Shown: piece after piece, positions 7,761 through 47,639 of the stretch
Layout: each line of letters begins with the position of its first letter
How positions within the stretch are numbered: position 1 is the stretch's first letter
DNA from: a virus
Taxonomy: Duplodnaviria > Caudoviricetes
DNA: 52,676 nt
IMG/VR virus record: IMGVR_UViG_3300043384_000025
Coordinates: 1-52,676 of that record
Reading direction: 5' to 3' (one strand)
The notes under the pieces: generated by a model
Told to the model about the DNA's origin: nothing
Database searches by the model: none
The model's input: only the letters and a program-made list of their open reading frames with translations
Position numbers and translations under genes: made by a program

Positions 7761-8283
7761 CCCAGTGGTCGGACTCAGAGTCCGTGTTACAGGCTCGGTG
7801 AGTGTATCGAGTGTGTATCGGGAATGCGCAACTGTTCTCCGGCCATCCCTTGGCTTGGAGTCCGGGTGGCACACGCTGTGTGCAGAATGCGCGGCAGCCG
7901 TTACACTGGGGGCCGACCTACGCTTGGATCGGGGGCTGCCAGTGTCGTCAAAGTCAGGCTTGGTATTCTCGACGCAGAGGCTCACGGTCATCATCAGCGA
8001 GCGACTCCGCCCAGAGCAGTCGCAGATCTGGGCCGGCGGCCGCATCGTCGTCGTCGGGCCAGGCCCAAGGGCAGCGGAGCGCGCCGAGTACGCGCTGCGA
8101 ACCTGGCGGCTCTGCGAACGGGCCACCGAGCTCGATGAAGCGGCGGGTCGGAAGGCCGCGACGCTGAGTCGTTGAATAGCTGACGTTCTGTAGTTCCCCC
8201 TGGAACAACAGCCGAACCTGACCAGTCCCCACTGGCAACGGCTCCGTTGTGTCCAGCACGCCCACAAGATTTGAGCCTGGCAC

Positions 8284-8312
8284 TTGCGCGAATGTACCGC
8301 GCTAGCTACAAC
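8284..8312 (+). promoter_or_regulatory. Putative early promoter with operator
   Basis: TTGCGC-N17-TACAAC overlapping TGTAccgcgctagcTACA (8293-8310), upstream of the plus-strand operon. Confidence 0.5.
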
Positions 8313-8345
8313 GCACGCTCCACTGCATCTGCGCGGGCGGGCCCC

Positions 8346-9230
8346 ATGAGTGGCGTCCAGAGCGACTATCGAGAGCAGCCTGGCGCGCACTACTCCACGC
8401 TCAAGGAACTGGGGCGCTCCGCTCGCCACTTCGCCTGGCTCGAGGCGCACGATCGCGAGCCGACCGCCGCCCTCGGCGTCGGGATCGCGACTCACCTCGC
8501 GGTGCTCGAGCCTGAGAAGTTCGCCGAGCGCGTGGTGATCTGGGGGCGCCAACTCGGCAGGCGCTCGGGGTCGATCTGGGCGAAGTTCAAGGGCTCCGCG
8601 GATCGGCGCGACCAGATCGTCCTGACCGAGGACGAGCACGACGAGGTGCTCGCGCTTGCTCGCGCGGTTCGTTCGAGCCCCCAGGCCAGGCCGCTGCTCA
8701 CCGACCCGAGCGGCGAGGCCGAGAAGGCGATCGCCTGGGTCGACGGCGAGACGGGGATCCAGTGCAAGGCCCGTCTCGACTGGGTGTGCGGCGCGGGAAT
8801 CGCAGACCTGAAAACCACGCGCGACGCGAGCCCCGACGGCTTCGCGCGCGAGTGCGCGCGCTACGGCTACCACAGGCAGGCTGCGTTCTACGTTGACGGC
8901 TACACCGCTGCTCAATGCCCGCGCGGAGGCTTGGTGTCCGCGACCCACCGGCAGGCGGCGTTCTCGATCATCGCCGTCGAGAAGGCACCGCCGTACGTCG
9001 TCCAGGTCTACCGCGTCGCCGGCGACGTGCTCGAGCTCGGCCGCGCGGAGATGCGGAGCTACCTGCGCCAGCTCGCTCAGCTGCAACGGCTCCCGCAGGA
9101 CCAATGGCCGGGCTACGCCGACGAGCCGCTCGACCTGTACCTGCCGCGGTGGGCGATGCCGCGGGAGGACGCGCTCGGCGACCTCGGGCTCGACGCGACT
9201 GGTCTCGACGACGCCACGAAGGAGGACTGA
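8346..9230 (+). CDS. PD-(D/E)XK exonuclease (ExoVIII/DUF3799-like)
   Basis: GIATHLAVLEPEKF, CKARLDW, IADLKTT, YGYHRQAAFY, IIAVEK, WPGY. Contains solo repeat S1 in frame. Confidence 0.88.
   Translation: MSGVQSDYREQPGAHYSTLKELGRSARHFAWLEAHDREPTAALGVGIATHLAVLEPEKFAERVVIWGRQLGRRSGSIWAKFKGSADRRDQIVLTEDEHDEVLALARAVRSSPQARPLLTDPSGEAEKAIAWVDGETGIQCKARLDWVCGAGIADLKTTRDASPDGFARECARYGYHRQAAFYVDGYTAAQCPRGGLVSATHRQAAFSIIAVEKAPPYVVQVYRVAGDVLELGRAEMRSYLRQLAQLQRLPQDQWPGYADEPLDLYLPRWAMPREDALGDLGLDATGLDDATKED
8909..8944 (+). repeat. Solo CRISPR repeat S1, in frame in the exonuclease gene
   Basis: TGCTCAATGCCCGCGCGGAGGCTTGGTGTCCGCGAC, 32/36 identical to the array consensus. Confidence 0.93.
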
Positions 9231-9235
9231 AGCCC

Positions 9236-9454
9236 ATGACACAGGACGAGCGCGAGGCGATGCGAACGGTGCTGCGAGAGAACATCGGCAAACTGATTCG
9301 CGATCTGTTGGTCGCGCCGCTGGAGGACGCATGCAAGGAGCGCCCGACCTCCGAAATCGATCGTGAGCTCCTCGAGATCGGGCGCGAGGTGTTGGCCGAC
9401 CTCACAGGACAGGTCGTCGAACCCAGCCTCATCAAGGGCGGGCCACACCTATGA
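9236..9454 (+). CDS. Hypothetical protein
   Basis: GGAGG upstream, 72 aa, coupled to the next gene. Confidence 0.6.
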   Translation: MTQDEREAMRTVLRENIGKLIRDLLVAPLEDACKERPTSEIDRELLEIGREVLADLTGQVVEPSLIKGGPHL

Positions 9455-9936
9455 GCGACACCGGCCCTGGCCCCAACGAGATCGTCGATCTGCCCGTCCC
9501 AGACGACTGGACTAAGTTGTTTGAGTCCCGCTTCCTTCACGCGGCGGACCTCGGCGGTCGCGATGTCGTGCTCAAGATCGAGCGGATGGTCTTCGAGGAG
9601 ATGCCGGACCCGAAGACGCCGAAGGCACGAAAGAAGATGGGCTCGCTCGTCTTCGAGGGACGAAAGAAGATCCTCGGGCTCAACCGGACTAATGCCACGT
9701 GCCTCAAGCAGATGTTCGGCCCCAAGCTCGCGACCTGGGTCGGCAAGCGCATCGGCCTCTACCCGACCACGGTGAGGATGCCGAAGCCGGGATCTCGGGA
9801 GATGGTCGACGAGCCCTGCATCCGCGTGCGCGGCTCGCCCGACATCGAGGCGGAGATCGTCTTCGAGCTCGTCTTGCCGCAGCGCGCGCCGATGACGGTC
9901 AAGCTCCAGCGGCTCGCCGCGGAGAAGAAGCCATGA
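9451..9936 (+). CDS. Conserved phage protein, possibly ssDNA-binding or annealing partner of the exonuclease
   Basis: FLHAADLGGRDV...LGLNRTNA...WVGKRI...CIRVR; function inferred from context only. Confidence 0.65.
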   Translation: MSDTGPGPNEIVDLPVPDDWTKLFESRFLHAADLGGRDVVLKIERMVFEEMPDPKTPKARKKMGSLVFEGRKKILGLNRTNATCLKQMFGPKLATWVGKRIGLYPTTVRMPKPGSREMVDEPCIRVRGSPDIEAEIVFELVLPQRAPMTVKLQRLAAEKKP

Positions 9937-10412
9937 GCGCTCTGGGCGAGGAATTTGTGGCCGTCGCCTTCACGGGCCACCGTCCGCCCCGCCTGCCCCT
10001 CGACGCATACCCGTCGGTCTACCTGGCCACCTTGGGCTTCCTGCGCGAGCTCAAGCCAGCCTGGGCTATTTGCGGCATGGCGCGTGGCTACGACTTGCTC
10101 GCGGCCGAGGTCTGCATCGCGCTCGGGATCCCATACATCGCGGCGATCCCATACCCGGATCAAGCCGAGCGGTGGACGCCCATGGATCGAATGACCTGGG
10201 AGTTGCTGAAACACCTAGCTGGGAGGGTGATCATCCTCTCGCAGGCCTACGCGCCGCGGAACAAGTGGATGGTCGACAACTGCGACCACCTGCTGGCGTG
10301 CTGGGACGGCGCGATCGGCGGCGGCACCGCGAGCACCGTCGCCTACGCTCGGCTGCGGGGGAAGCACGTCACGGTCTTTGCGCCGGCCCGTGAATCGAGG
10401 GTGGCCGAATGA
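9933..10412 (+). CDS. SLOG family (YspA/DUF1273-like) protein
   Basis: VAFTGHRP, GMARGYD, RNKWMVDNCD, GGTASTV. Confidence 0.85.
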   Translation: MSALGEEFVAVAFTGHRPPRLPLDAYPSVYLATLGFLRELKPAWAICGMARGYDLLAAEVCIALGIPYIAAIPYPDQAERWTPMDRMTWELLKHLAGRVIILSQAYAPRNKWMVDNCDHLLACWDGAIGGGTASTVAYARLRGKHVTVFAPARESRVAE

Positions 10413-11221
10413 TCGCCCAGGACCGCGCGCTCGTCTTCTTCGACCTCGAGGCCACGGGCGTCAACCCGCTCGATGACCGGATCATCGAGGTCTGCTTCCT
10501 CCGCCGAGAGATCGACGGTCGAGAGAGCGTCTTCGCATCGCTCGTGAATCCCGGCAGGCCGATCCCTCCGGACGCGACCGACGTCAATCGAATCACCGAT
10601 GCGATGGTCGCGGGCTTCCCGACGTTCAAGGAGCTGGCGCCGCAGATCCTCGAGATGCTCGCCGACGCCGACCTGGCGGGATTCAACATCCTCGGCTTCG
10701 ACATCCCGCTACTCGCCGCCGAGATCGCGCGAGCGGGCATGCTCCCGAGCTCGCCACCCAGGCGGCGGATCCTCGACGCCTACCTGATCTTTCACCGCCG
10801 GGAGCCGCACAGCCTCTCCGGTGCCGCGCGCCTCTACTGCGGGCTCGAGCTCGGCACCGAGGCACACCGCGCCGAGGCCGACGTGCGAGCGACGGCCGCG
10901 GTGCTCGATGCCCAGGTCGAGCGCTACGCCGACCTCGGGCGGAACGTCGCCGGCGTCGCCGAGTGGCTCAAGCAGAAGGATCCCCGCTTCGTCGACAAGG
11001 ACGGGAAGTTCTGCTGGGCGAATGGCGAGGCCGTATTTGCGTTCGGCAAGCACACCGGCAAGACGCTGCGCGCGGTCGCCGCCGGGGAGCGCGACCACCT
11101 CGAGTGGATGCTGAGGGCGTCGTTCTCTCGTGAGGTCGTCGCGCTCGTCAAGAAGGCGCTAGCGGGGGAGTTCCCGGTGCGGAACGGAGTCCCGGGGCCG
11201 GAACGGGAGGCGAAGCCATGA
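10409..11221 (+). CDS. DEDDh 3'-5' exonuclease (DnaQ-like)
   Basis: FFDLEATG, AGFNILGFD, AHRAEAD, FGKHTG. Confidence 0.9.
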   Translation: MIAQDRALVFFDLEATGVNPLDDRIIEVCFLRREIDGRESVFASLVNPGRPIPPDATDVNRITDAMVAGFPTFKELAPQILEMLADADLAGFNILGFDIPLLAAEIARAGMLPSSPPRRRILDAYLIFHRREPHSLSGAARLYCGLELGTEAHRAEADVRATAAVLDAQVERYADLGRNVAGVAEWLKQKDPRFVDKDGKFCWANGEAVFAFGKHTGKTLRAVAAGERDHLEWMLRASFSREVVALVKKALAGEFPVRNGVPGPEREAKP

Positions 11222-11412
11222 CCGAGACGAAAAACGAGTGGATCATCTGCAAGGGCAATCGGGTGAAGTTGGACGAGGTCAAGATGCCTTGGCTGACCCC
11301 GACACAGAGGGCCTGGCGCTGTCCGATGTGCGGATGCGTCACCTTCGAGGATTCGGCACTGGAGGCGAAGGACGCGGCGGTCAGGGCAATCCTGTTGGGC
11401 GAGGAGGCATAG
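11218..11412 (+). CDS. Small hypothetical protein (CxxC)
   Basis: 64 aa coupled ORF filling the gap between neighbours. Confidence 0.55.
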   Translation: MTETKNEWIICKGNRVKLDEVKMPWLTPTQRAWRCPMCGCVTFEDSALEAKDAAVRAILLGEEA

Positions 11413-11414
11413 CA

Positions 11415-12782
11415 ATGGCGAAGATCATTCGGCTTGTCGGTGAGAATTTCAAACGCATCCGCGCAATCGAAATCCTCCCGACCGGCAACGTCGTCCAAAT
11501 CCGCGGAGCCAACGGCGCCGGGAAGTCGTCGGTCCTCGATGCTATCGCGGCGGCCGTCGGCGGGGAGCGGCTCTGCCCCGAGATCCCGATCAAGCGCGGC
11601 GAGGACAAGGCCTCCGTCACCGTGGAGACCGAGGACCTCACGATCACCAGGCGCTGGACCTCGAAGGGCTCTTACCTCGAGGTCGCCGCGAAGGACGGCT
11701 CGATCTTCCGGAGCCCCCAGCGCGTCCTCGATGCCCTGACCGGCTCGCTCTCATTCGATCCGCTCTCGTTTACCCGCTTCGAGCCGGCGAAGCAGCTGAA
11801 GCTCGCGAGCGAGCTCGTCGGGGTCGACCTGGCCGACCTCGATGTCGAGCGTCGCAAGGCGTACGACGAGCGCACCGTGGTCAATCGGGAGGCCGAGCGG
11901 CTCGCGGCGCAGGTGCCGTCCCCGGTCGTGGGCGAGGTGCCAGATGAGGAGGTGAGCCTCGAGAAGGTGCTCGCTGAGCTGGAGCAGGCCGAGCACCAAA
12001 AGCGCGTGCACGAGAGCAAGCGCACCGAGCTCGCGCTACTCCGAGAGGAGCACAAGGCGACCACCGCGAAGATCGCCGACCTCAAGGGCGACCTCGCCGA
12101 GGAGGAGGGTCGCCTCGCCGCGCTCGCGACGCAGGGCAAGATCCTCGCCGCCGGGCTCGTCGGCTTGAAGGACCCCGACATCGCCGCGGCGCGGGCGCGG
12201 GCTCTTGCGGTGCAGGAAACCAACGGGCGGGTGCGCCAGAAGAAGGATCGGCTCGAGCGCCAGGCCCAGGCCCAGGTGAAGAAGGCCGAGGCTCTCGCGC
12301 TCACCGCCCGCCTTTCGGCGATCGAGGAGGAGCGGGCGAAGCGGATCGCCGCGGCGAAGTTCCCCGTCGAAGGCCTCGGCCTGGGCGAGGGCGGGCTGAC
12401 GCTCAACGGGCTTCCCTTCGAGCAGGCCTCGAGCGCCGAGAAGCTCCGGGTGAGCCTCGCGATGGGGCTCGCCCTGAATCCGAAGCTCAAGATCATCCTC
12501 ATCCGCGACGGCTCGCTCCTCGACGAGACGAGCCTCGCGCTGGTCACCGAGATGGCGGCCGCCGCTGACGCGCAGGTCTGGCTCGAGATGGTGTCGACGG
12601 ATGGGGGCCCGGTCGGGATCCTGATCGAAGACGGGATGGTCGCCGGCGCCGCCGCTCCGAGCGCGAGCCCGAAGCGGAAGCGAGACGCTCCTTCGCCGGA
12701 CGCGGCGCCCGCGGCACCGGAGCCAGAGGCGCCGAGCCAGGCCGCGAGCTCGTCCACAGCTGAAGACAACTGCCCGTTCTGA
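11415..12782 (+). CDS. Rad50/SbcC-like ATPase
   Basis: GGAGG RBS; ENFKRI, GANGAGKSS, coiled coil, ASSAEK signature, ILIRDGSLLD. Confidence 0.88.
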   Translation: MAKIIRLVGENFKRIRAIEILPTGNVVQIRGANGAGKSSVLDAIAAAVGGERLCPEIPIKRGEDKASVTVETEDLTITRRWTSKGSYLEVAAKDGSIFRSPQRVLDALTGSLSFDPLSFTRFEPAKQLKLASELVGVDLADLDVERRKAYDERTVVNREAERLAAQVPSPVVGEVPDEEVSLEKVLAELEQAEHQKRVHESKRTELALLREEHKATTAKIADLKGDLAEEEGRLAALATQGKILAAGLVGLKDPDIAAARARALAVQETNGRVRQKKDRLERQAQAQVKKAEALALTARLSAIEEERAKRIAAAKFPVEGLGLGEGGLTLNGLPFEQASSAEKLRVSLAMGLALNPKLKIILIRDGSLLDETSLALVTEMAAAADAQVWLEMVSTDGGPVGILIEDGMVAGAAAPSASPKRKRDAPSPDAAPAAPEPEAPSQAASSSTAEDNCPF

Positions 12783-12799
12783 CAGCCCGGGGGCGTCCA

Positions 12800-13144
12800 A
12801 TGTCACGACGACCGGAACAGCCGGGCGCGACTCGCCCGTCGACTCCTCACCTCGATCTGCGCGCGGCCGAGTGGGCTGCACAGCTCGTCGACGAACGCGG
12901 CTGGCGACCTGACACCGCGCTGGCGCACGCGCGCGCCGCGTACTCGCTCCCGGGTGGGCGACAGGCCGGCGCCGATGCCACGCTGACCGCCGAGTTCCGC
13001 GCGGCGCTCGTGCGACAGAGTGCCGCGCGCCGTGACGCGGGGGCGATGACGCCGCCGGACGCGGGCCTCGCGATCGAGCAAGCCGGCTCGCTCGACGCGC
13101 ACTCACGGAGAAGCCGCGCAGCGAAACGAAGGGCGGCGCGATGA
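12800..13144 (+). CDS. Hypothetical protein
   Basis: Operon position; stop overlaps the next ATG. Confidence 0.5.
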   Translation: MSRRPEQPGATRPSTPHLDLRAAEWAAQLVDERGWRPDTALAHARAAYSLPGGRQAGADATLTAEFRAALVRQSAARRDAGAMTPPDAGLAIEQAGSLDAHSRRSRAAKRRAAR

Positions 13145-13401
13145 GCCACGCTCGCGAAGGGTGGCCCGAGCTCATGGACGCCAGGGCGAAGGCGCGTCGA
13201 GCCGAAACGGTGGCCGACGTCCTGAGCGCCCAGGTGCAGCGCCTGCTAGACGAGTCCGACGAGCTCGCCGCCGAGCTCCACCGCACCCGCCGCACCGCCC
13301 GCGCCCGCGTCCACCGGCTGACGGAGCGCATCCGCATGCTACGCGCGGCCTTCGATGACGTGGCAACGAAACAGCAAACCCGAGAGGAGACCGCGCCATG
13401 A
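13141..13401 (+). CDS. Hypothetical coiled-coil protein
   Basis: Coupled ORF, 86 aa. Confidence 0.6.
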   Translation: MSHAREGWPELMDARAKARRAETVADVLSAQVQRLLDESDELAAELHRTRRTARARVHRLTERIRMLRAAFDDVATKQQTREETAP

Positions 13402-13976
13402 ACCGCAAGGGCAGAGAAGTGATCGAGACGAAGACCGAGGACCTGCTCGTCGTACTCGAAGAGGACGAGATCAACGAGCGCGCACGCAAGCTCGCCGCGA
13501 AACAGGGCGAGCTCGAGCACCAAATCGATGAAGGGCGCCGCATCCAGGGCGAGCAGGCCACGAGGCGCAAGGCCATCGAGGCGGAGATCAAGGGCCTCGG
13601 CGACGCCGTCCGCGAAGGGACGGAGCTGCGCCCGGTGGTCGTCGAGATCATCGCGAACTATTCGAAGGCCACCATCCAAGAGATCCGAGAGGACACGGGG
13701 AAGGTGATCATCGAGCGGGCGATGCGGGCCGACGAGCGGCAGATCGGGATCCCCATGAACGAGATCAAGAACGAGTCCCCGAAGGCGGTCGCAAAGCGGC
13801 TCTTCGCCGATGGCGTCCGCCCCGAGGACGTCGGGATCGAGCAGAGGGTCAGCGATGCCGCGGCGGCGGCGCACGTCGAGATCGCCGCGGTGCTCGAGGC
13901 GCTGGTCGACCTCGCCGAGGAGGCGGCCGCGAGGAAGGGCAAGCGCAAGGGCGGCGATGGCGAGGCGACGCCGTGA
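13398..13976 (+). CDS. Hypothetical protein
   Basis: GAGGAG RBS, strong GC3 bias, 192 aa. Confidence 0.7.
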   Translation: MNRKGREVIETKTEDLLVVLEEDEINERARKLAAKQGELEHQIDEGRRIQGEQATRRKAIEAEIKGLGDAVREGTELRPVVVEIIANYSKATIQEIREDTGKVIIERAMRADERQIGIPMNEIKNESPKAVAKRLFADGVRPEDVGIEQRVSDAAAAAHVEIAAVLEALVDLAEEAAARKGKRKGGDGEATP

Positions 13977-14587
13977 GCGCACGCATCGGCGCATGGTCGC
14001 AGACCTACACGGGCCGCCAATACTGGCCGCAGGACCCGCGCCCCGAGGACGTTGACCCGATCGACATCGCGCACGCCCTGTCGCTGCAATGTCGTTTCGG
14101 CGGCCACTGCAAGTGGCATTACTCGGTAGCGCAGCACTCGCTTCTTGTGGCCGAACTCCTCGGCTCAATGCCCGCGCAGGGGCCTGGTACCTGCGACTGG
14201 GGCTTGCTGCACGATGCCTCCGAGGCATACATGGTCGACCTCCCGAGGCCGCTGAAGAACCACTCGGCGATGGGCCTCGAATACAAGCGGATCGAAGCAC
14301 TGAACATGAGAGCGATCTGGGCGCGCTTCGGGCTCGTCGGACCGCAACCCGAGGCTGTCGCAATCGCCGACGAAGTGGCGTTGGCGATGGAGTTTCGCGA
14401 CGTCATGGGGTTGCCTCCGGATGCGCTGAATCTCCAGCAGGCGCCGGCGTCCCCCATCATCACTCGCATGAGCCCGGAGGCTTGCGAGGCGATCTTCCTC
14501 AATACCCTCGGCGTGCTCCTCGAAGCCCGAAGGGACGAGCAGGCGGGGTGGTCTTCGGCACATCTCCTCGCGCTCGAAGAACGATGA
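13973..14587 (+). CDS. HD-domain phosphohydrolase (YfdR/YfbR-like 5'-deoxynucleotidase)
   Basis: DIAHALS..CRFGGH..YSVAQHS...LLHDASEAY..DLPRPLK. Contains solo repeat S2 in frame. Confidence 0.9.
   Translation: MSARIGAWSQTYTGRQYWPQDPRPEDVDPIDIAHALSLQCRFGGHCKWHYSVAQHSLLVAELLGSMPAQGPGTCDWGLLHDASEAYMVDLPRPLKNHSAMGLEYKRIEALNMRAIWARFGLVGPQPEAVAIADEVALAMEFRDVMGLPPDALNLQQAPASPIITRMSPEACEAIFLNTLGVLLEARRDEQAGWSSAHLLALEER
14162..14197 (+). repeat. Solo CRISPR repeat S2, in frame in the HD hydrolase gene
   Basis: GGCTCAATGCCCGCGCAGGGGCCTGGTACCTGCGAC; stem CGCAGG/CCTGCG fully compensated. Confidence 0.85.
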
Positions 14588-14712
14588 AATGCCAACCGGG
14601 CCCCTGAGCTCGGCGCGGAGCACGTGCGGTCTCCGTGGCGACAGAACAACCGCACGCTGGGCCCGCCGGCGGCCGAGTCACCGCCGGCGGGCGCCATCCA
14701 AAGGAGGTCCAA

Positions 14713-14997
14713 ATGGCAACGCTGGTCATTCACATGCTGGACGGGACGGTCGTTCGAAAAACCGTTCCGGTCGTCGAAGCTGTCGCGATACATCTACTGC
14801 GCGCCATGCTCCGGATGCCGCCCGGCGCGCGAGTCGGGCCGGTCTCGTCGAGCGAGGTCTTGCTCCTCGCCGTGCACTCCCTGACCGCGTGTCCCCAGTG
14901 CGGCGCGGACGGCTTTGGCAACCCGGGCGGATGCCAGGTGTGCGCGCTCGGGCGAAAGGTTGTCGAGACGTTCAAGAATGGGAAGGCGTCGGCATAA
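14713..14997 (+). CDS. Small Zn-finger protein upstream of cas12
   Basis: AAGGAGG RBS; CPQC...CQVC; 94 aa. Confidence 0.7.
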   Translation: MATLVIHMLDGTVVRKTVPVVEAVAIHLLRAMLRMPPGARVGPVSSSEVLLLAVHSLTACPQCGADGFGNPGGCQVCALGRKVVETFKNGKASA

Positions 14998-15005
14998 AGG
15001 CGGCC

Positions 15006-15041
15006 ATATCAATGCCCGCGCGGAGGCCTGGTATCCGCGAC
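15006..15041 (+). repeat. Solo CRISPR repeat S3 in the cas12 5' region
   Basis: ATATCAATGCCCGCGCGGAGGCCTGGTATCCGCGAC, ending 42 nt before the cas12 ATG. Confidence 0.93.
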
Positions 15042-15083
15042 TGCGCGCTCGGGACGTCGAGGATCCGAAGAGGAGGCATTGCA

Positions 15084-16790
15084 ATGATCGTCTACAAATA
15101 TCGCATCTACCCAGACGAATCCGATCCGATGCTGCGCCAGATCCTGATGAGGGGAGAACGCTTCGCGCGGGTGATGACCGAGATCCATCAGCGTTACAAA
15201 GAGGCGGCTGCCGATCGCAAGCTTGTCGCGGTCGAGCAGCGCCGGGACTTCGCCTTGCTGGCCAAGTCGAGATTCCTCGCCGAGGCTAGGGACGCCAGGG
15301 CCCATTCCGGGCTCCACGGTAGCACCTGTAGCGCGATATCTGCCGCGCGCGACCAGGCCGCGCGTACGACCTCGCGCAAGTGCCTGCTCGCCAAGAAGGG
15401 CGGGGTGTGCCGCTGCGGCGAAGAGCATGCCGAGGGTACGCGCATTTGGATGCAATTCGAGCCACGGGTGGCAATCGTGGGGTGCCCGTTCTGCGGCCGA
15501 GGCCTTCGCATGCCGATCTCCGGAGAAGGGGGCGTCATCGGCGGGCAGATTCGCCACGACCGGCGATATTGCACGACAGACGAGATCCTCGGCGGCGAGT
15601 CTAGCGCCGTGCGCATTACTGGGACGGGGCGCGACCGCGTCGTACATCGTCGCGTGGCCGCCGCCGACGGAGAACCGGTATGGCTCTCGGCGCCGATGGT
15701 CTACCATCGCCCTCTGCCTCCTGGAGAGGGGGCGCGAGATGCTAGATTCGTGCGGCGTCGCATCGGCCATCACGCCGAGTGGCACGTGCTATTAACGATC
15801 GACTCCGAGTCATCGAGGCTTCCGAGCCCGACAAAGGGGTCCGTCGGCATCGATCTCGGCTGGCGACAGATGGACACCGGCGAGCTCCGAGTCGCAGCGT
15901 GGCGTGACGACACCGGCGCAGAGGGAGAGGTCCGCATCCCGGCGCAACTCGTTCGAGACATGCGCTCTGTCGACGAATTGCAGTCGACCAGGTCGACCAA
16001 CCTGGACGCGCTCCGAGACGCCCTGGTACTCGCCCGTGAGAGCTGGCCCGCGGGACTCTCCGAGGCGACTCGCTCGCTCCATCAATGGCGGTCACCAGAT
16101 CGGTTCGTGAGGCTCATGTACCGCATTCGCCGGGAAGCGCCAGGCGTCGCCGGAGCGGGCGCACTACGCGACTGGTATCGACGCCTGGACGACACCGGCC
16201 TGGCCCACGGAGAGAGCCATCTCAGAGAATGGGCGGAGCACCAGCGGGAGCATTGCCTGCTACGGAGAAAGGAGTTCTTTCGCTTGCAGGCACGGCAGTT
16301 CGCGGCGTACCGCGAAATGCATTGCGAGGACCTCGACCTATCCAAGTTGGCCAGACTCGCGGACGACCCCGAAGAGCGCCTCGCCAGGAAGGCGAGGCAT
16401 AACCGGATGCTTGCCGCGCCGAGCTACCTGCGCGCCGACATATTGTCATGCGTCGAACGGGCCGGCGGGCTGGTGGTCAAAGTGGACCCGGCGTACACCA
16501 CGCAGAAGTGCCCGATGTGCGGCCTCGTCTCCAGGTTGGACCCGATGCCGATCATACATACCTGCCCCGAGTGCGGTGTGACGCTCGACCAAGACCTCAA
16601 GGCAGCCGAAAACATTCGGCGAGCGCCGAGGTGCTCGCCGCCGAAGGGACCCCGCTCGCAGCCGCAAGATGCCGAGGTCGCAAAGCTTTCCGCATGGGCG
16701 CGCAGAAAGGCAGCCAAGACAGCACGAGAAGCGGAGGACCGCTCGCAAGGCGACTTGCAAGTGGTCGACAACATTGACATCGCAAAGTGA
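15084..16790 (+). CDS. cas12m: Compact type V CRISPR effector, Cas12m-like (V-M/V-U1, TnpB-derived), 568 aa
   Basis: AGGAGG RBS; N-terminal VYKYRI; MVYHRPLP; RuvC-I VGIDLGWR (D257); RuvC-II CEDLDL (E415); AAPSYLR; TTQKCPMCG...CPECG; RuvC-III DQDLKAAENI (D504). Stop is 3 nt from the first repeat. Subtype assigned from remembered motifs, not from a search. Confidence 0.85.
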   Translation: MIVYKYRIYPDESDPMLRQILMRGERFARVMTEIHQRYKEAAADRKLVAVEQRRDFALLAKSRFLAEARDARAHSGLHGSTCSAISAARDQAARTTSRKCLLAKKGGVCRCGEEHAEGTRIWMQFEPRVAIVGCPFCGRGLRMPISGEGGVIGGQIRHDRRYCTTDEILGGESSAVRITGTGRDRVVHRRVAAADGEPVWLSAPMVYHRPLPPGEGARDARFVRRRIGHHAEWHVLLTIDSESSRLPSPTKGSVGIDLGWRQMDTGELRVAAWRDDTGAEGEVRIPAQLVRDMRSVDELQSTRSTNLDALRDALVLARESWPAGLSEATRSLHQWRSPDRFVRLMYRIRREAPGVAGAGALRDWYRRLDDTGLAHGESHLREWAEHQREHCLLRRKEFFRLQARQFAAYREMHCEDLDLSKLARLADDPEERLARKARHNRMLAAPSYLRADILSCVERAGGLVVKVDPAYTTQKCPMCGLVSRLDPMPIIHTCPECGVTLDQDLKAAENIRRAPRCSPPKGPRSQPQDAEVAKLSAWARRKAAKTAREAEDRSQGDLQVVDNIDIAK

Positions 16791-16793
16791 CCC

Positions 16794-17390
16794 CTCTCAA
16801 TGCCTGCGCGGAGGCTTGGTATCCGCGACCTCTCCGAGGCGGTGCGCTTCGACCCGAAGGGCTTCTCTCAATGCCTGCGCGGAGGCTTGGTATCCGCGAC
16901 GAGCTGGTCTCCGTGCATGCAGCCGTCACCACGCACTCTCAATGCCTGCGCGGAGGCTTGGTATCCGCGACGAGGCAGATCATGACTCGCATACCAGCCT
17001 ATCTCCCTCTCAATGCCTGCGCGGAGGCTTGGTATCCGCGACTTGATGCTCTCGAGCATTTCGCGCGAGGGGGCGCGCTCTCAATGCCTGCGCGGAGGCT
17101 TGGTATCCGCGACTGCCAGCTCGGGACGATGCCCGCGAAGAGGCTCGCCCGTCCCCTTTCAATGCCTGCGGAGAGGCCTTGTATCTCCGACCTCGAGCGC
17201 CCGGTCGAGCTCGGCGCGGGTGGCCGGCTTTCAATGCCTGCGGAGAGGCTTGGTGTCTCCGACCGTGGGCTCGTGCTCGTCGCGCCGCCGCAATCTCGAG
17301 CTCTCAATGCCTGCGCAGAGGCTTTGTTTCTGCGACGCGCGGATTCTCCTATTACTCTCAATGCCTGCGAAGAGGCTTTGTATCTTCGAC
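16794..17390 (+). CRISPR. CRISPR array, 9 repeats of 36 nt and 8 spacers
   Basis: Consensus CTCTCAATGCCTGCGCGGAGGCTTGGTATCCGCGAC. Starts at 16794, 16865, 16936, 17007, 17078 (identical) and 17156, 17228, 17301, 17355 (variants). Spacers are 35, 35, 35, 35, 42, 36, 37 and 18 nt. Confidence 0.97.
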
Positions 17391-17394
17391 TCGC

Positions 17395-17426
17395 GCCGCC
17401 CTCCCGCACCGGGCGGCATTCTCTTT
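17395..17426 (+). terminator. Putative terminator hairpin after the array
   Basis: GCCGCCC-N9-GGGCGGC followed by ATTCTCTTT (weak U tract). Confidence 0.45.
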
Positions 17427-17459
17427 GATATCTTCGCCGACGACCGCAGGGAGTGATAG

Positions 17460-17774
17460 ATGGACATCGAGTGCGTCATCAGAGAAGCGGTTCGTACCAG
17501 CATCCGCGAGGAGCTGCGCGCCGCCCTGGGCGAACTCAAGGCCTCGACGGCGCCAGCGGCCTACCTCACGATCCGCGAGGCCGCGGAGCTCGCCAGGGTC
17601 TCGTGCGACTCGCTCCGGAGGTGGATCGGCGCCGGCCGCCTCACCGCTCGGCGTGCCGGCAGGGAGTTGCGGATCGAGCGCTCGGCTCTCGAGGCGTTCC
17701 TCTCGGAGAACATCGCGGCCCCCAAACCGTCGCCAGATCAGTGCTTCGATCGGATGTTCGGCGGCAAGCGCTGA
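17460..17774 (+). CDS. xis: Excisionase / HTH_17 DNA-binding protein
   Basis: YLTIREAAELARVSCDSLRRWIGAGRLTARRAGRELRI; directly upstream of the integrase. Confidence 0.85.
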   Translation: MDIECVIREAVRTSIREELRAALGELKASTAPAAYLTIREAAELARVSCDSLRRWIGAGRLTARRAGRELRIERSALEAFLSENIAAPKPSPDQCFDRMFGGKR

Positions 17775-17822
17775 CAGAGGCCGGCGCGGCGGGGTAGTGT
17801 CCCACGAGCTACACAGAGGCCG

Positions 17823-17858
17823 CTCTCAATGCCTGCGAAGAGGCTTGGTATCTTCGAC
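17823..17858 (+). repeat. Solo CRISPR repeat S4, abutting the integrase RBS
   Basis: CTCTCAATGCCTGCGAAGAGGCTTGGTATCTTCGAC, then GAGGAGGCAGC-ATG. Confidence 0.95.
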
Positions 17859-17869
17859 GAGGAGGCAGC

Positions 17870-19624
17870 ATGGGGCTGTACGCGAGAGGCACGCGGCTTT
17901 GGTTTTCGTGGACCGACGCGAACGGGAAGCGGCACCGCGAGCCGAGCGACTTCGAGGTCGGCCAGGAAGCGATGGCCGCGAAGGTGCTCGCGCGCGGGCA
18001 GGCGAAGATCGCCGCCGAGAAGAAGGCGCTGGCCGGCGGGCCGCGCGTGCACACCGAGAAGACTTCGCTGACCGACTACGTGCTGGGCGCACCTGGTGGC
18101 TGGCTCGAGGTCCGCCGGGCACGCAAGCCCGGTGTCGCTGCGAGCGAGCAGAGCATGTTCGAGTGCCACATCAGCCCGTTCCTCGGCCAGATGGCGCTGG
18201 GAGAGATCCGGCCTCGGAACGCGCGCGCGTTCATCTGGCACATGCGCGAGAAGATCAGCGAGGAGACCGGCCGGACGTTCGGAGGCAGGACGATTCGATC
18301 GATCGCCGGTCTGCTCGGGGCCATCCTCGACGATGCCGCGAGCGACGAGATCATCCCGATCAGCCCGTACAAGCTCAAGCGCGGGGATCTCCCGCCGAAG
18401 ATCGACGTCGATCCTCTGTGGCGGCAGCTCGCGTTCTTCGAGCGCGAGGAGATCGAGCAGTTGATCGGCGACCCGCGGATCCCGGAGGATCGCCAGGTGG
18501 TCTACGCCCTGGGGTTCATGACCGGCATGCGGCCGGGCGAGGTCGCTGCCCTGCGATGGGAGCGCTACCTGGCGAACGAGCAGCCGCTTGGGAAGCTGGT
18601 GGTCGCGACGAGCTTCTGCGCGAAGACGCACAAGGAGAGGCCGACCACCAAGACGAGCTCGACGAAGCTCGTGCCCGTGCACGCGTCGCTCGCGTCGATC
18701 TTGGCGAAGTGGAAGCTCGGCGGGTGGGCGCGGCTCATGGGCACTGACCCGCGGCCCAGGGACCTGCTCGTGCCGTCACGGCGGCGCGGGGACTTCCGCA
18801 ACCCCAACGACATGACGAACTCGCTCGAGGTCGACCTCGATGCGCTGGGGCTGCGCCGCAGGACGGCGCGCGACTGGAGGCCGAGCTTCATGACGCTGGT
18901 GCGGGCGGACGGGGCGATCGACGAGATCGCCAGGATGATCACGCATGGGGGGCAAAAGGACACCGTCGGCGGTTACCTTCGATTCCCATGGGCGACCGTG
19001 TGCCGCGAGTTGGCGAAGTTGCGAATCGAGCTCCGGGGGGAGGGGCTCGTGCTACCTTTTCGGCAGGCGGTCGGGGGGGACGGAGTCACGATGGAGGATG
19101 GGGTCTCAATGCCCGCGGAGAGGCCTGGTATCTCCGACATATCACACGCGGGGGAATCTGAGGCATTGGCACAGCGTTGTCACAGCCCGGAAAAACAGCC
19201 CTGTTTACAGCTACCTGGGGAGGTACACGGTTTGAGCCGGAACCAAAGTGCGGGTGTGGGGCCAGGCAGACTCACGCCGGCTAACGCCGCAGAATCACAG
19301 AGTGTCGCGGCGCGGCAATCGGCGTCAAGCGGGCTCGCGCCGACTCCCGTTGTGACAATGTGCCAATCAGGCGGCCGCACCAAGCCCGCCGTCGAGCCCG
19401 TCGTCGACCCCGTCGCCGACCCGTGGGACGAAGCCGCTACACGTTTTGTAGCGGCCGTAGCGGCCGCCCGGGACCCCGTCGGCGAAGCCCTCCTCGCCGC
19501 CCAGGATGCCTGGAGCGGGGCTCGCGACCGCATCGGCCTCCGAGTGCGCCTGCTCGAGATCGACCGCCTGCTCGACCGCATGGCCCTTGCCGAGCGGCCC
19601 TTGCCGCCGGGGGGCAAGCCTTGA
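17870..19624 (+). CDS. int: Tyrosine integrase with long C-terminal extension
   Basis: TGMRPGEVAALRW, TKT, VPVH, RDWR (variant of HxxR), ITH, GGY. Confidence 0.9.
   Translation: MGLYARGTRLWFSWTDANGKRHREPSDFEVGQEAMAAKVLARGQAKIAAEKKALAGGPRVHTEKTSLTDYVLGAPGGWLEVRRARKPGVAASEQSMFECHISPFLGQMALGEIRPRNARAFIWHMREKISEETGRTFGGRTIRSIAGLLGAILDDAASDEIIPISPYKLKRGDLPPKIDVDPLWRQLAFFEREEIEQLIGDPRIPEDRQVVYALGFMTGMRPGEVAALRWERYLANEQPLGKLVVATSFCAKTHKERPTTKTSSTKLVPVHASLASILAKWKLGGWARLMGTDPRPRDLLVPSRRRGDFRNPNDMTNSLEVDLDALGLRRRTARDWRPSFMTLVRADGAIDEIARMITHGGQKDTVGGYLRFPWATVCRELAKLRIELRGEGLVLPFRQAVGGDGVTMEDGVSMPAERPGISDISHAGESEALAQRCHSPEKQPCLQLPGEVHGLSRNQSAGVGPGRLTPANAAESQSVAARQSASSGLAPTPVVTMCQSGGRTKPAVEPVVDPVADPWDEAATRFVAAVAAARDPVGEALLAAQDAWSGARDRIGLRVRLLEIDRLLDRMALAERPLPPGGKP
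19103..19138 (+). repeat. Solo CRISPR repeat S5, in frame in the integrase C-terminal extension
   Basis: GTCTCAATGCCCGCGGAGAGGCCTGGTATCTCCGAC; stem CGGAGA/TCTCCG. Confidence 0.92.
19165..19367. other. Putative attP inside the integrase gene
   Basis: Left arm-like repeats TTGGCACA and TTGTCACA (19166-19184) are inverted relative to TGTGACAA and TGTGCCAA (19351-19366); lower GC. Core not identified. Confidence 0.55.
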
Positions 19625-19629
19625 TCGCC

Positions 19630-19665
19630 CCCTCAATGCCCGCGCAGAGGCTTGGTGTCTGCGAC
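19630..19665 (+). repeat. Solo CRISPR repeat S6, just after the integrase stop
   Basis: CCCTCAATGCCCGCGCAGAGGCTTGGTGTCTGCGAC; stem CGCAGA/TCTGCG. Confidence 0.92.
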
Positions 19666-19712
19666 CTCGACCTCCTGCGCCTGCTCGAGGCCTCGCCGGC
19701 GAGCGGGCGCCC

Positions 19713-20324
19713 GTGATCGCCGCGCTCTACGTCGCCAAGGGCGGCGTGTACTACGGGCTCCCCGACGTCGATCCCTGGGACGAGGCGCGGGACGCTCGGC
19801 TCTACGCCGGCCCGTGGCCGGTGGTCGCACACCCGCCATGCGCCAGGTGGTGCGGATTGGCGGGGCTCGTTGAGGCTCGATGGGGTCACCGTCGAGGCGA
19901 AGACGGAGGATGCTTTGCTTCGGCCCTCGCCTCCGTGCGGCGGTGGGGCGGCGTGCTTGAGCATCCGGCCTATTCCGCTGCATGGGCCAAATTCCTGCTA
20001 CCGGCCCCACCCCGTCATGGCGGATGGGTGCGCGGAATCTGTGGCGGTTGGGCGGCTCATGTCGAGCAGTCCAGGTTTGGACATGTTGCCAAGAAAGCTA
20101 CGTGGCTATACGCATTCCACGTGTTTCCGCCATCAATGCCGTGGGGCTCATCGCCAGATGGTTCTTCGCTAGCTATTGTCTCGTGGTGCGGGAACCACAC
20201 TTCTAGATTCGACACTCGGCCTAGAATTGGTAAGGCTCGCGCAGCGGCGACGCCCGTCGCATTCCGCGATTTGCTTCTTTCTATCTCCAGGAGCGCCAAT
20301 GGCTCGTCCGCGAACGCTACTTGA
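19713..20324 (+). CDS. Putative DNA cytosine methyltransferase-like protein
   Basis: IAALYV...DARLYAGPWPVVAHPPCARW...GGVLEHP...KKATWLY; PC and EHP motifs resemble C5-MTase motifs IV and VI. Confidence 0.65.
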   Translation: MIAALYVAKGGVYYGLPDVDPWDEARDARLYAGPWPVVAHPPCARWCGLAGLVEARWGHRRGEDGGCFASALASVRRWGGVLEHPAYSAAWAKFLLPAPPRHGGWVRGICGGWAAHVEQSRFGHVAKKATWLYAFHVFPPSMPWGSSPDGSSLAIVSWCGNHTSRFDTRPRIGKARAAATPVAFRDLLLSISRSANGSSANAT

Positions 20325-20728
20325 TATTCGTTTTTGGCTGAAGGTCGACAAGCGTGGACCAGGCGAGTCAGCGCGCCGGCACAGGGATAACGTGGTCTCA
20401 CATCGCGCGCACGGCCCCTCAACCACTCTTCCCTTCCCGCAGAGAGGAGCGCCTAGGACTCCTCTGTGCTCCCGAAATTGGCAGGGCGAGACCGATGCCG
20501 CGGTGCGCGCGTTTCAGGGTGCCCAGAATCTCGAGGTTGACGGGAGGGTCGGGCGCGAGACCTGGCTGAAGCTGCTCGCGTAGGTCGACGGCAGGTCCCG
20601 ACGAGGGCGACGATTCGCGCCTCGGCATCGAGCTGAATCCGTCGTACCTCGACGACAGCCTCAAGCGCCTCCGTTCCGCCGCCGCCCAGCAACTCCTTCC
20701 ATTCACGCAGAGAGGAGAACCACCATGA
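20299..20728 (+). pseudogene. Mosaic of gene remnants (HNH N-terminus, PG-binding domain, MTase C-terminus)
   Basis: RFWLKVDKRGP; AAVRAFQGAQNLEVDGRVGRETW; LGIELNPSYLDDSLKRL (from 20621). Confidence 0.6.
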
Positions 20729-21294
20729 GTAGCGACCAGCCGCTTCCGACCGTCGACCCCCGTTCCCGACCGGTGACCACCGCGTTGCGCGAGCTCCTCG
20801 ACGCACGGGAGCAGCGCGGCATCGCGACTTACGGTCGCAGCCTCACGACGCATAATGGGCGCGTTTCCCCGCGCGACCTGGTCGAGGAGCTCATCGACGG
20901 GGCGCAGTACGGACTTCAGTGGGAGCTCGAGCGCACCGACATGCTCGAGGACATCGCCCGCCTGAAGCGCGCGCTCGACGCCGTGCGCAGCAACGCCGAG
21001 CAGATCAGGGACGAGGCGCGCGCGGCGGCCGAGGCGTACCTGGTGGAGCGCGCAGCCCTCAAGGAGCAGCTCGCCTGGTGCCGCGCGAGGCTCGCGCCCA
21101 GGTCGGCGGTGTCCTTCGACATCCTCGCGGCGGCGGCTGCGATGCCCGACGCCCCGCCTGTCACGCTCGGCGAGGTGCTCGGCGGGGGACTCATCCGCGA
21201 GGCCAGCGTCACCATCGACGAGAGCTTGCAGCGGCTCAAGGGGAAGATCGACGCCGCAATGGCCGCCGACGCCGACGACAAGGCGACGGAATAG
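20725..21294 (+). CDS. Hypothetical protein (possible all-alpha NTP pyrophosphatase-like N-terminus)
   Basis: AGGAG RBS; REQRGIATYG..L...NGR...EELIDGAQY. Confidence 0.65.
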   Translation: MSSDQPLPTVDPRSRPVTTALRELLDAREQRGIATYGRSLTTHNGRVSPRDLVEELIDGAQYGLQWELERTDMLEDIARLKRALDAVRSNAEQIRDEARAAAEAYLVERAALKEQLAWCRARLAPRSAVSFDILAAAAAMPDAPPVTLGEVLGGGLIREASVTIDESLQRLKGKIDAAMAADADDKATE

Positions 21295-21306
21295 CCCCGG
21301 GCCCGC

Positions 21307-21342
21307 AAAGAGGAACCCACCCAAGCTCGCGCCGGGTGGGCT
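21307..21342 (-). terminator. Intrinsic terminator between convergent operons
   Basis: CCCACCC-N11-GGGTGGG followed by TTCCTCTTT on the minus strand. Confidence 0.6.
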
Positions 21343-21378
21343 GTCGGAGATACCAAGCCTCTCCGCGGGCATCGCGCA
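21343..21378 (-). repeat. Solo CRISPR repeat S7 (minus strand, 3' UTR of the leftward operon)
   Basis: Reverse complement is TGCGCGATGCCCGCGGAGAGGCTTGGTATCTCCGAC; first 6 nt diverged, both stems intact. Confidence 0.88.
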
Positions 21379-21397
21379 GCAACTCGTTCGGAGAAGT

Positions 21398-21712
21398 CTA
21401 CTTCGCCGGATCGGCCGCCGCCACCTGTTGCGCGCCGCTGGCCCTGGGCTCGACGCCGAGCGCTTCCCGCGCACGCTGGCAGAGCACGACCGAGGAGGCG
21501 TGATCGCTGCCGGTGAGGCGCTTCCATTCCTTGGCTACCTCATCGGTCCAATACCGGCCATCGTGAAAGAGCAGCACCGCTCGGAGGGCGTCGCCCATGG
21601 CATGGACGGTGGTCTCGGCCTGCCGGGCCAACTCGATCAGCTGCTCGTTCTGCTCATGCAGTAGGCGCCAATCCCGCTCGATCGTCCGCAACCGTTCTTC
21701 GATGATGTTCAC
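21398..21712 (-). CDS. Hypothetical protein
   Basis: GTG after GGAGG, coupled to the upstream stop. Confidence 0.6.
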   Translation of the reverse strand: MNIIEERLRTIERDWRLLHEQNEQLIELARQAETTVHAMGDALRAVLLFHDGRYWTDEVAKEWKRLTGSDHASSVVLCQRAREALGVEPRASGAQQVAAADPAK

Positions 21713-22302
21713 TTGCGCCTCCAGACCGAGAGGCCGTCGTGGATCCCGGACCACGTCGGGATCCGGCGGGCGGCCAGCGTCTCGAACCGCGCCTCGAGCA
21801 GCTCGTCGAACCGAACGTCGGCGCAGCACCCGCCGACCTCGCCGACGTAGATCACTCGCTTGCCCTCGTAGACTTCGAGCGCTTCGGCCGCCCATGGCAT
21901 GGCGTACGACGGCCAGATCAGCATCAGCGTCCGCTCGGGGTACACCTTCGCCGCGGTCGCAGCGTCCATCTCGACGACCGGGTGCCACTGGCGCTCGAAC
22001 CGCACGGTGCCGATCGGCGTCCGGCTCGAGGGCACCGGGTGGAGGTCGGTGGCGATGATGTCCACGCCGAGCGCTTCCAGCTCGTACGCCCAGTAGCCTG
22101 CGCCCGCGCCTACCTCGATGATCGGCCCATACCTCGCGACAGCGAGCAGCGCGTCCTCATCGGGGATCGCGAAGCCGAAGCCGCGCACGAACCTGGACCT
22201 GAGATCGATGACCCGCTCGAGATCGAAGAGCGGGTAGCCGGACAGGAAGCCGTCTCCCGCCTTCACGCCAGCGTCTCGCAAAGCCTGCTCGTACAGGGTC
22301 AA
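21709..22302 (-). CDS. Class I SAM-dependent methyltransferase-like protein
   Basis: IIEVGAGAGYWA, DIIATD, LMLIWP, VIYVGE. Confidence 0.75.
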   Translation of the reverse strand: MTLYEQALRDAGVKAGDGFLSGYPLFDLERVIDLRSRFVRGFGFAIPDEDALLAVARYGPIIEVGAGAGYWAYELEALGVDIIATDLHPVPSSRTPIGTVRFERQWHPVVEMDAATAAKVYPERTLMLIWPSYAMPWAAEALEVYEGKRVIYVGEVGGCCADVRFDELLEARFETLAARRIPTWSGIHDGLSVWRRK

Positions 22303-47498: not shown

Positions 47499-47639
47499 GG
47501 ATGCTGCCTCCTCGATCTGTATTCGCGCCTCTGAATAAAGCGGCGACCGAGCTTGGCAGCCCGGCCGCCGCCCCGTCGCGTCGGGCCACTCGAGGAGGCG
47601 CGTGTCGCCGACCCGATCAGGCCTGTGCTGCTGTCCGGA

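Follow-up and report, generated by a model that had tools for sequence, protein, structure and literature searches.

Why does a phage that carries a CRISPR array beside its own effector gene also keep intact single copies of the array repeat within its genes and their leaders? The question is raised by the virus record IMGVR_UViG_3300043384_000025, whose whole sequence of 52,676 bases (67.6% G+C, completeness rated at ~80%) is the window analysed here. The window contains 16 intact repeats of 36 nucleotides (nt), nine in the array and seven standing alone (solos). These units are probably the repeats of a phage-borne type V-M (Cas12m) CRISPR system, and the solos would be one-repeat guide units or Cas12m binding sites in phage messenger RNAs (mRNAs), as judged from sequence comparison. 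The pseudoknot of the repeat is the known Cas12m CRISPR RNA (crRNA) scaffold, published in 2023 and 2024, and is not a discovery; the new part is the solos within genes and leaders, an unusual layout. The layout matters, as CRISPR repeats are expected in arrays or in separate small RNA genes. No description of Cas12m repeats dispersed in genes was found in the accessible parts of the literature searched, the supplements of which may list such repeats.

Effector gene, array and repeat census

The array and its effector gene form one compact locus on the plus strand, with the following features.

15084–16790, plus strand: cas12m effector gene, 568 amino acids (aa), with RuvC-like residues D257/E415/D504 and matches to Cas12m chains
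16794–17390, plus strand: CRISPR array of nine 36-nt repeats (R1–R9), located by pattern scan and covariance model, starting 4 nt past the cas12m stop codon
17129–17145, plus strand: truncated repeat remnant within "spacer 5" (17114–17155), comprising the 5′ half only, with the solo-type C at position 12 (8.8 bits)
17395–17426 (approximate ends), plus strand: G+C-rich hairpin and T-rich run directly after R9, the likely array terminator, read from the sequence and not listed by a simple terminator scan

By homology, the predicted product of 15084–16790 is a Cas12m of type V-M. Among Protein Data Bank (PDB) chains compared by phmmer, it matches Cas12m 23vw_A (E = 1.9e-33), UnCas12m4a 23vu_A (2.7e-23) and Cas12m2 8hhl/8hio (~4.7e-14), with modest scores and with the alignment to the solved Cas12m chains confined to the C-terminal ~330 residues. 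The Pfam family Cas12f1-like_TNB is matched at 3.6e-15 and the NCBIfam model guided_TnpB at 1.3e-15, the latter under the cut-off of that family, and the identity to the Cas12m genes of the fetched metagenome loci is 25–36%. Cas1 (PF01867) gave no match in the 52.7-kb record, which is ~80% complete, with 7 of 14 genomes matched in the control and with Cas2 and Cas4 not searched.

The array repeats start at 16794, 16865, 16936, 17007, 17078, 17156, 17228, 17301 and 17355, the last one ending at 17390. They are separated by spacers of 35, 35, 35, 35, 42, 36, 37 and 18 nt, the first five repeats following a 71-nt period. R1–R5 are identical and possess the stem CGCGGA/TCCGCG, while R6 and R7 carry CGGAGA/TCTCCG, R8 carries CGCAGA/TCTGCG and R9 carries CGAAGA/TCTTCG. 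The first 12 nt of spacer 1 (16830–16841) are identical to 16056–16067 of the cas12m gene, in the same reading frame (LSEA); this identity could be chance, or the spacer could derive from the cas12m of a rival.

The solos start at 8909, 14162, 15006, 17823, 19103 and 19630 on the plus strand, and the seventh is situated at 21343–21378 on the minus strand. Numbered S1 to S7, they possess the stems CGCGGA/TCCGCG (S1 and S3), CGGAGA/TCTCCG (S5 and S7), CGCAGA/TCTGCG (S6), CGAAGA/TCTTCG (S4) and CGCAGG/CCTGCG (S2). A degenerate pattern scan of the window recovers all 16 copies (15 exact and one with two mismatches) against a chance expectation of 0.06, and none of 100 shuffles reaches this number. 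A covariance model built from the repeats of relatives and run with filters off gives the same 16 matches at 45.7–53.1 bits, and the 17th of the 87 matches listed scores 13.8 bits; the copies are thus either intact, at no less than 45.7 bits, or gone. The nine array and seven solitary copies of the original prediction and its array coordinates are therefore recovered by both methods, and its five stem variants, with their assignment to individual copies, hold exactly.

Outside the paired positions, the variation among the copies is confined to columns 1–4, 6, 12, 23, 25 and 28, in line with the earlier placing of the remaining variation in the first 6 nt, position 12 and the loop of positions 23–28. 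Position 12 is T in all nine array repeats and C in six of the seven solos. The solos differ from one another at 4–10 of the 36 positions and, beyond R1–R5, the identical aligned bases between any two copies come to at most 24, a figure consistent with, though no demonstration of, the earlier suggestion that diversification limits recombination between dispersed copies. For every array variant there is a solo nearly identical to it, and R9 and the solo at 17823 (S_17823) differ at a single position.

Fold and covariation of the repeat

As predicted from the alignments, the repeat can fold into a 3-bp stem (positions 9–11 with 20–22) together with A7–U24, a crossing 6-bp helix (14–19 with 29–34) closed by G13·A35, and then C36. 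Among the 12 distinct window repeats, all 108 pair cells are standard, with neither a G–U pair nor a mismatch, which bears out the pairing of 14–19 with 29–34 originally claimed for all 16 copies. Three pairs are compensatory, changing on both sides: 16:32 (C–G in 6, G–C in 4 and A–U in 2 repeats), 17:31 (A–U in 9, G–C in 3) and 19:29 (A–U in 11, G–C in 1). GCC at positions 9–11 and GGC at positions 20–22 are invariant in all 16 copies. None of 500 shuffles of the window repeats attains the observed values for percentage of pairing, covariation score or number of cells with a both-sided change, and slid controls are 30–55% paired.

The same pattern was scanned over three public collections and gave 70 loci. 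A fuzzy search, allowing at most four mismatches and blind to pairing at positions 16–19 and 28–33, found 320 copies. Copies entered the alignment by the presence of a neighbour within 250 nt, a rule that avoids choice by structure, so that 264 were kept and 56 isolated ones dropped. The resulting alignment comprises 150 distinct repeats, 148 from array contexts at other loci and two window units. Many single matches in genome and metagenome contigs, with pairing at only one to four of the six stem positions, are probably chance and were excluded.

Across the 150 repeats, 97.6% of the cells are paired and eight of the nine pairs change on both sides, including all six pairs of the helix 14–19/29–34, each of which covaries. 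In the crossing stem, 99.3% of the cells are paired, and both-sided changes occur at 10:21 (3 cells) and 11:20 (7 cells). Because the fuzzy search penalised double changes in this stem, the search was biased against its covariation, not toward it. No shuffle out of 500 reaches any of the five measures, and slid controls are 34–50% paired. A7:U24 is paired in 148 of the 150 rows. Positions 8 and 23 are for the most part unpaired, and a conserved non-standard pair (consensus G·A) stands at 13:35 in 146 rows. G–U pairs are tolerated at 15:33, 17:31, 18:30 and 19:29, with 8 to 13 such cells per pair. Hence, the invariant GCC and GGC, earlier proposed as a crossing stem, do covary once the repeats of related loci are included, and covariation in both helices upholds the view that a single RNA fold is maintained across array variants and solos alike.

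The original prediction had also suggested comparison with published Cas12m crRNA structures, and the layout agrees with that of the MmCas12m2 crRNA (PMC10442227, Omura 2023). The accessible part of that paper describes a G(-23)·A(-2) pair, six Watson–Crick pairs termed "PK" and then C(-1), stacked on the stem, and that of a second study (PMC11013384, Bigelyte 2024) reports a triplex-pseudoknot core and two stems predicted for Cas12m repeats. Like the type V-M crRNA scaffold in these accounts (MmCas12m2, PDB 8HHL/8HHM/8HIO; GoCas12m), the window repeat is a 36-nt repeat-derived unit with a 6-bp PK closed by G·A, C(-1) and a short stem, here supported by covariation. Compared with MmCas12m2, the loop between the helix strands appears to be 1 nt longer, according to the numbering in PMC10442227. 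Unlike the V-M scaffolds in the published text accessible, the window has four stem alleles in its array and intact repeats outside the array, in genes and leaders. The fold itself simply confirms the published Cas12m structures, and the addition is natural covariation for both helices.

Every stem type of the window also occurs elsewhere as an array's standard repeat, and stem-intact variant repeats within one array are frequent in the Cas12m repeat family (L036, L043, L061/L067 and L070). Several of these arrays show peculiarities of their own. Along the array of L070 (2899–3640, plus strand), the pair 19:29 changes stepwise, being G–C in the first two repeats, G·U in the third and A–U from the fourth. 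L067 (514–7084, minus strand), which overlaps L061, contains ~70 model matches over 6.5 kb, declining from 48 to 27 bits, with start-to-start spacings of ~46–75 nt and some long gaps; L043 (1–2044, plus strand) contains ~35 matches in 2 kb, with "spacers" down to ~10 nt. The stems are mostly still paired in both. In L062 (518–917 and 2763–3374, minus strand), and also in L069, two arrays lie on either side of one cas12m gene; the two arrays of L062 share the 6-bp helix and differ in the crossing-stem allele (GCC/GGC vs GCT/AGC).

Solitary repeats inside genes

Three of the seven solos are in-frame insertions in real genes, encoding an exonuclease VIII-like protein, an HD hydrolase and an integrase. 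The features concerned are as follows.

8909–8944, plus strand: solo S_8909, in frame in the exonuclease VIII-like gene (8346–9230)
8945–8964, plus strand: 20-nt guide of S_8909, of which 18 bases match 8870–8889 of the same gene
14162–14197, plus strand: solo S_14162, in frame in the HD phosphohydrolase gene (13973–14587)
17870–19624, plus strand: integrase open reading frame (ORF), matching PHROG 1 integrase at 3.2e-26 over residues 7–359
19103–19138, plus strand: solo S_19103, within the 3′ portion of the integrase ORF and in its frame, followed by a foreign guide of ~20 nt

The repeat is open, without a stop codon, in all three sense frames, and all seven solos are co-oriented with the local coding direction, an outcome of 1 in 128 under random orientation. 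In the case of the exonuclease, comparison with homologs of 82–85% identity shows the gain of AQCPRGGLVSA, corresponding to the 33-nt repeat core, and downstream of it the replacement of the homologs' nine residues SHRGLMPAF by THRQAAF. Eleven homologs lack the repeat; nine more distant ones have no insert at all, and P0005, one of the eleven (81% identical, on a 61-kb contig), contains a different insert of seven residues, RIDRAVE, at exactly the loop occupied by S_8909, which makes this loop a hot spot of insertion and deletion. The near-copy of the S_8909 guide at 8870–8889, situated 75 nt upstream, encodes the conserved YHRQAAFY motif; both differences are synonymous, and CTA precedes it. 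We infer that S_8909 and S_19103 each brought a guide along with the repeat, as a true spacer.

In the HD phosphohydrolase, S_14162 replaces a variable loop that is 5–6 aa shorter in all nine homologs. The guide, directly after the repeat, encodes the invariant WGLLHDA motif. The residue before the tryptophan is leucine in eight of the nine homologs (methionine in P0147), so that the repeat-less allele has YTN at this place.

After S_19103, the integrase ORF contains a tract of lower G+C (19139–19357), open in the integrase frame; the inverted motifs TTGTCACA and TGTGACAA occur in it, and a regulatory or attachment function is possible.

Solitary repeats in leaders and before a terminator

The remaining four solos are located between or in front of genes.

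15006–15041, plus strand: solo S_15006, in the cas12m leader, ending 42 nt before the ATG
17823–17858, plus strand: solo S_17823, ending directly at the integrase Shine–Dalgarno sequence GAGGAGG, with the ATG at +12
19630–19665, plus strand: solo S_19630, between the integrase stop codon (19624) and the GTG of the next gene (19713), ending 47 nt before the GTG
21343–21378, minus strand: solo S_21378(-), between the stop codon of a minus-strand gene and a hairpin with T run common to the convergent gene

The first 12 bases of the S_15006 guide recur at 14941–14952, 101 nt upstream of the guide; genome-wide, this prefix match falls short of significance (P = 0.067), its closeness being the one striking aspect. 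The start of the guide (15042–15056) shares 13 of 15 bases with the start of spacer 5 (17114–17128). Block-wise copying of a repeat together with ~15 nt seems to have occurred, leaving cas12m flanked by similar units.

S_17823 is identical in its 33-nt core to a solo in the relative L035, and GAGGAGG(C/A)AGCA follows both. The first 13 nt of its guide equal 47501–47513 (minus strand), where the gene that follows the major head gene has its start region; L035 bears the same repeat allele at exactly this site, and the chance of such a 13-nt prefix match is ~0.03 genome-wide. Among 25 isolated copies, 18 from other loci and seven from the window, six have a Shine–Dalgarno core and a start codon within 25 nt, compared with 5.6% of background positions (binomial p = 0.002). 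The start-site arrangement recurs in L035, L041, L054, L023 and L047, and the copy in L047 precedes its cas12m.

Guide matches and turnover among relatives

At no more than two mismatches, the S_8909 guide is the only one with a further match within the window itself. Ten non-self matches are found at up to four mismatches, compared with 2.4 ± 1.7 for mononucleotide-shuffled guides, a weak control that supports no conclusion. The whole array, searched in distant mode against 50,697 phage records, gives one 31-nt match (E = 0.2), taken as chance, and the spacers and solo guides searched against 150 fetched loci give only matches of 12–18 nt besides those of the repeat.

Comparison of contigs indicates that solos are gained and lost among close relatives. 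S_19103 is absent from the relative in run X3, in which 88 nt are replaced by 40, and from that in run X4, in which 78 nt are skipped; the frame is kept in both. S_19630 is absent from the X4 relative, where 19528 is joined to 19665 with 23 other letters between. The X4 relative is also 25 nt shorter over 8362–9405, which spans S_8909, and 15 nt shorter across S_14162. The 98%-like contig of X3 retains S_14162, and a solo without counterpart in the window is present in the X3 relative between 14698 and 14765. Similarly, L035, a metagenome contig of 1.2 kb, is 85% identical to 46578–47230 (659 nt) and 79% identical to 47522–47915 (398 nt), and its solo stands 3 nt before the Shine–Dalgarno sequence of the gene after the major head gene, a site without a solo in the window. 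Among viral contigs, the Cas12m protein finds no close relative, and the exonuclease alignment retains 80 loci, with a best identity of 41% and no real repeat; fuzzy repeat matches in L080 and L081 were rejected for want of the GAC end.

Comparison with known systems

In type V-M systems, as described in the accessible text on them, a DNA-binding effector of ~570–610 aa carried on mobile elements processes its own crRNA within the repeat, and no trans-activating crRNA is used. The features of type V-M found in the window are an adjacent Cas12m gene, 36-nt repeats with ~35-nt spacers, the pseudoknot layout and no detected Cas1. Phage- or prophage-borne V-M systems are already in print (PMC11656645; 10.64898/2026.09.14.751636). 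The V-M locus of Myxophage MV-1 (10.64898/2026.09.14.751636) resembles the window in possessing a phage Cas12m with a D-E-D RuvC and an adjacent array; according to the accessible text, the locus has eight spacers and lacks cas1/2/4, and protospacers were not found. Between the first two RuvC residues, the spacing is 158 in both MvCas12m and the window effector, whereas MvCas12m has 610 aa compared with 568 here, and the spacing to the third catalytic residue is 92 compared with 89. The words "solitary", "pseudoknot", "degenerate repeat" and "secondary structure" do not occur in the accessible text of the MV-1 preprint.

Viral mini-arrays (PMC11656645) consist of minimal repeat and spacer units that, in the portion of that paper accessible, mostly target related viruses and serve competition between viruses. 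The S_8909 guide may be comparable, in that it matches, over 18 of 20 bases, a conserved motif of the phage's own gene family. Mini-arrays use the Cas proteins of the host and form separate non-coding loci; in contrast, the window has its own effector and one-repeat units, three of seven in frame in genes. A Racr is a solitary repeat in a virus without the cognate effector, whereas here a cognate effector and array are present in the same genome. Like regulators of the crlRNA/CreR type, as far as the accessible text of 10.1101/2023.03.03.530964 describes them, the window has one repeat just upstream of cas12m (S_15006), and the same holds for L047. The recurrence of the 12-nt guide prefix of S_15006 recalls the partial complementarity of crlRNA/CreR, with a match that is not significant genome-wide (P = 0.067). 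Unlike crlRNA/CreR, S_15006 lies in the leader in sense orientation and is not a separate mini-array, and most solos are far from cas12m.

The omega-RNA of TnpB in IS200/IS605 elements has a fixed scaffold, takes the adjacent DNA as its guide and recognises the element-less allele. Compared with it, the present unit is 36 nt instead of ~150 nt and belongs to a Cas12m effector with an array; neither transposon ends nor TnpA were seen.

Proposed role of the solitary repeats and rival explanations

In the proposed mechanism, Cas12m would bind every transcribed copy of the repeat and cut ~30 nt upstream of its 3′ end. A phage mRNA processed at a solo would thereby yield an extra crRNA, the guide of which is the next 17–20 nt. 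A solo could work as a one-repeat guide unit because type V crRNAs need the 5′ repeat only. For S_14162, the guide would be the gene's own conserved motif, and for S_17823 the ribosome-binding site and start codon.

If the solos are functional, their guides may serve chiefly to direct Cas12m against the repeat-less alleles of related, competing phages, a use to which we give somewhat less than an even chance. The carrier's own allele would be safe, the repeat having taken the place of the protospacer-adjacent motif (PAM). Such targeting, for which viral mini-arrays offer a precedent (PMC11656645), would explain the foreign guides of S_8909 and S_19103 and the fast turnover. It would also account for the S_14162 guide, which lies on an invariant motif where repeat-less alleles have a PAM-like triplet containing T. 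With the same tentative weight, binding or processing may instead mainly control the carrier's mRNA in cis, by autoregulation of cas12m and regulation of integrase translation, which would explain the start-site placement and the copy before cas12m and is preceded by the case of standalone repeats upstream of cas12a (10.1101/2023.03.03.530964); in the cases that remain, both uses would apply. A more speculative and rather unlikely extension is that the repeat with ~20 nt is a module spread by Cas12m phages into their own genes as a homing-like, RNA-guided marker-exclusion drive. With it, conserved sequence from coding regions or start sites would become guides against rivals' repeat-less allele, the carrier's own allele would be shielded, and in mixed infection the repeat allele would win or be copied into the rival, by DNA binding and not by cleavage.

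The strongest rival, somewhat unlikely in our judgement, would have the solos act exclusively in cis, as sites of Cas12m binding or processing, and never supply guides. Cas12m on a leader handle would then hold the following 17–20 nt, with the ribosome-binding site and start codon, and repress translation, providing autogenous control of cas12m and a lock on the integrase, while copies inside genes would mark mRNAs for cleavage. The ending of S_17823 at the integrase Shine–Dalgarno sequence, the like arrangement at the five other loci and the position of S_15006 within the cas12m leader all fit, as do standalone repeats upstream of cas12a in ~49–56% of V-A loci (accessible text of 10.1101/2023.03.03.530964). 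Regulatory sites should, however, stay put in close relatives, which lack S_19103 and S_19630 and have repeats at other sites; S_8909 and S_19103 seem to have arrived with a foreign ~20-nt guide, needless for a mere binding site, and just six of the 25 isolated copies adjoin a start site. It is distinctly improbable, furthermore, that the solos are non-functional scars or recent copies scattered by repeat recombination, with stems intact through recent copying and not through selection on the solos. Such an origin would suit the occurrence of every window stem type as the standard repeat of another array, the near-identical pairs such as R9 and S_17823, the resemblance of S_15006 with 15 nt to R5 with 15 nt, the fast turnover in relatives and the truncated remnant. 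Neutral scars nevertheless fit poorly with the intact stems, the strict orientation and the solo-specific C12: 4–10 of 36 positions distinguish the solos from one another and from the array, with no paired position broken, and C12 in six of seven solos against T12 in all array repeats indicates that most solos are not fresh copies of the present array. In addition, all seven are co-oriented with transcription, the three in-gene copies keep the frame, and the scores are bimodal, with no half-decayed solos.

Very improbable is the notion that the solos are Racr-like RNA decoys soaking up the Cas12m of the host, a plasmid or a rival phage. Viral single repeat units that mimic host repeats and inhibit Cas proteins are established in the accessible text of PMC10651486 and PMC11656645, and position 12 does set the solos apart from the array of the phage itself. 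Against this, decoys of this kind would poison the cognate Cas12m and array of the same genome as well, and known Racrs are separate small RNA genes in cas-less viruses, whereas three copies here are in frame within genes. We attach the least probability to a pairing that acts in DNA and not in RNA, as a hairpin for recombination or transposition, for example a relic of IS200/IS605 ends. The units behave as if mobile, and Cas12m descends from TnpB, as the sub-threshold guided_TnpB match recalls. Against this, the covariation of the crossing stem and the tolerated G–U pairs point to RNA, strict co-orientation with transcription is needless for a DNA site, and no transposase was seen among the 26 window proteins scanned, which are only part of the window's proteins.

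Several observations weigh against the solos being functional guide units or Cas12m binding sites. No protospacer was found, in the phage collection and the 150 fetched loci, for any array spacer or for the S_19103 guide. The "T at -2" PAM rests on three self-matches, two of which (12 and 13 nt) lack genome-wide significance (P = 0.067 and 0.03 per guide). In the window set taken by itself, two of the five measures of covariation are unexceptional, the number of pairs changed on both sides being reached by 30 of 500 shuffles and the number of further pair types by 435 of 500, and it is possible that the window variants were imported by recombination from other arrays and did not arise in place. 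The remnant at 17129–17145, which the original prediction overlooked, shows that decay without compensation occurs too. Fast turnover would equally fit neutral scars; moreover, the joints in relatives are known from tabulated contig summaries, and several repeat-edge joints have only one flank at the same locus and are possible assembly chimeras. Finally, cutting of the mRNA inside the exonuclease, HD hydrolase or integrase gene would destroy the message, an unexplained cost.

If Cas12m does process the mRNAs that contain solos, the phage's own messages would form a second, fast-changing guide library, or the CRISPR effector would act as a post-transcriptional regulator. Either role, if true, would widen the known uses of CRISPR systems on mobile elements, and the solos would provide compact natural designs with guide and protein on one transcript.

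Other features of the phage genome

From its gene content, the record looks like a temperate tailed phage. A replication and recombination set comprises a helicase, the exonuclease VIII-like gene and a DNA polymerase exonuclease subunit, and a block on the minus strand contains the protease, major head, sheath, tape-measure and baseplate genes. Between R9 and S_17823 lies one further gene.

17460–17774, plus strand: excisionase-type helix-turn-helix gene (Pfam HTH_17, 2.1e-11; TIGR01764, 9.9e-12)

Ten small proteins near the repeats gave nothing over the Pfam cut-off, the scan of 8000–22000 for promoters and terminators remained at chance level, and the window contains no transfer RNA genes. 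In addition, two arrays of 60-nt tandem repeats, with 3.7 and 2.2 copies and 68–70% matches, are situated in G+C-rich surroundings at 26666–26886 and 27095–27229.

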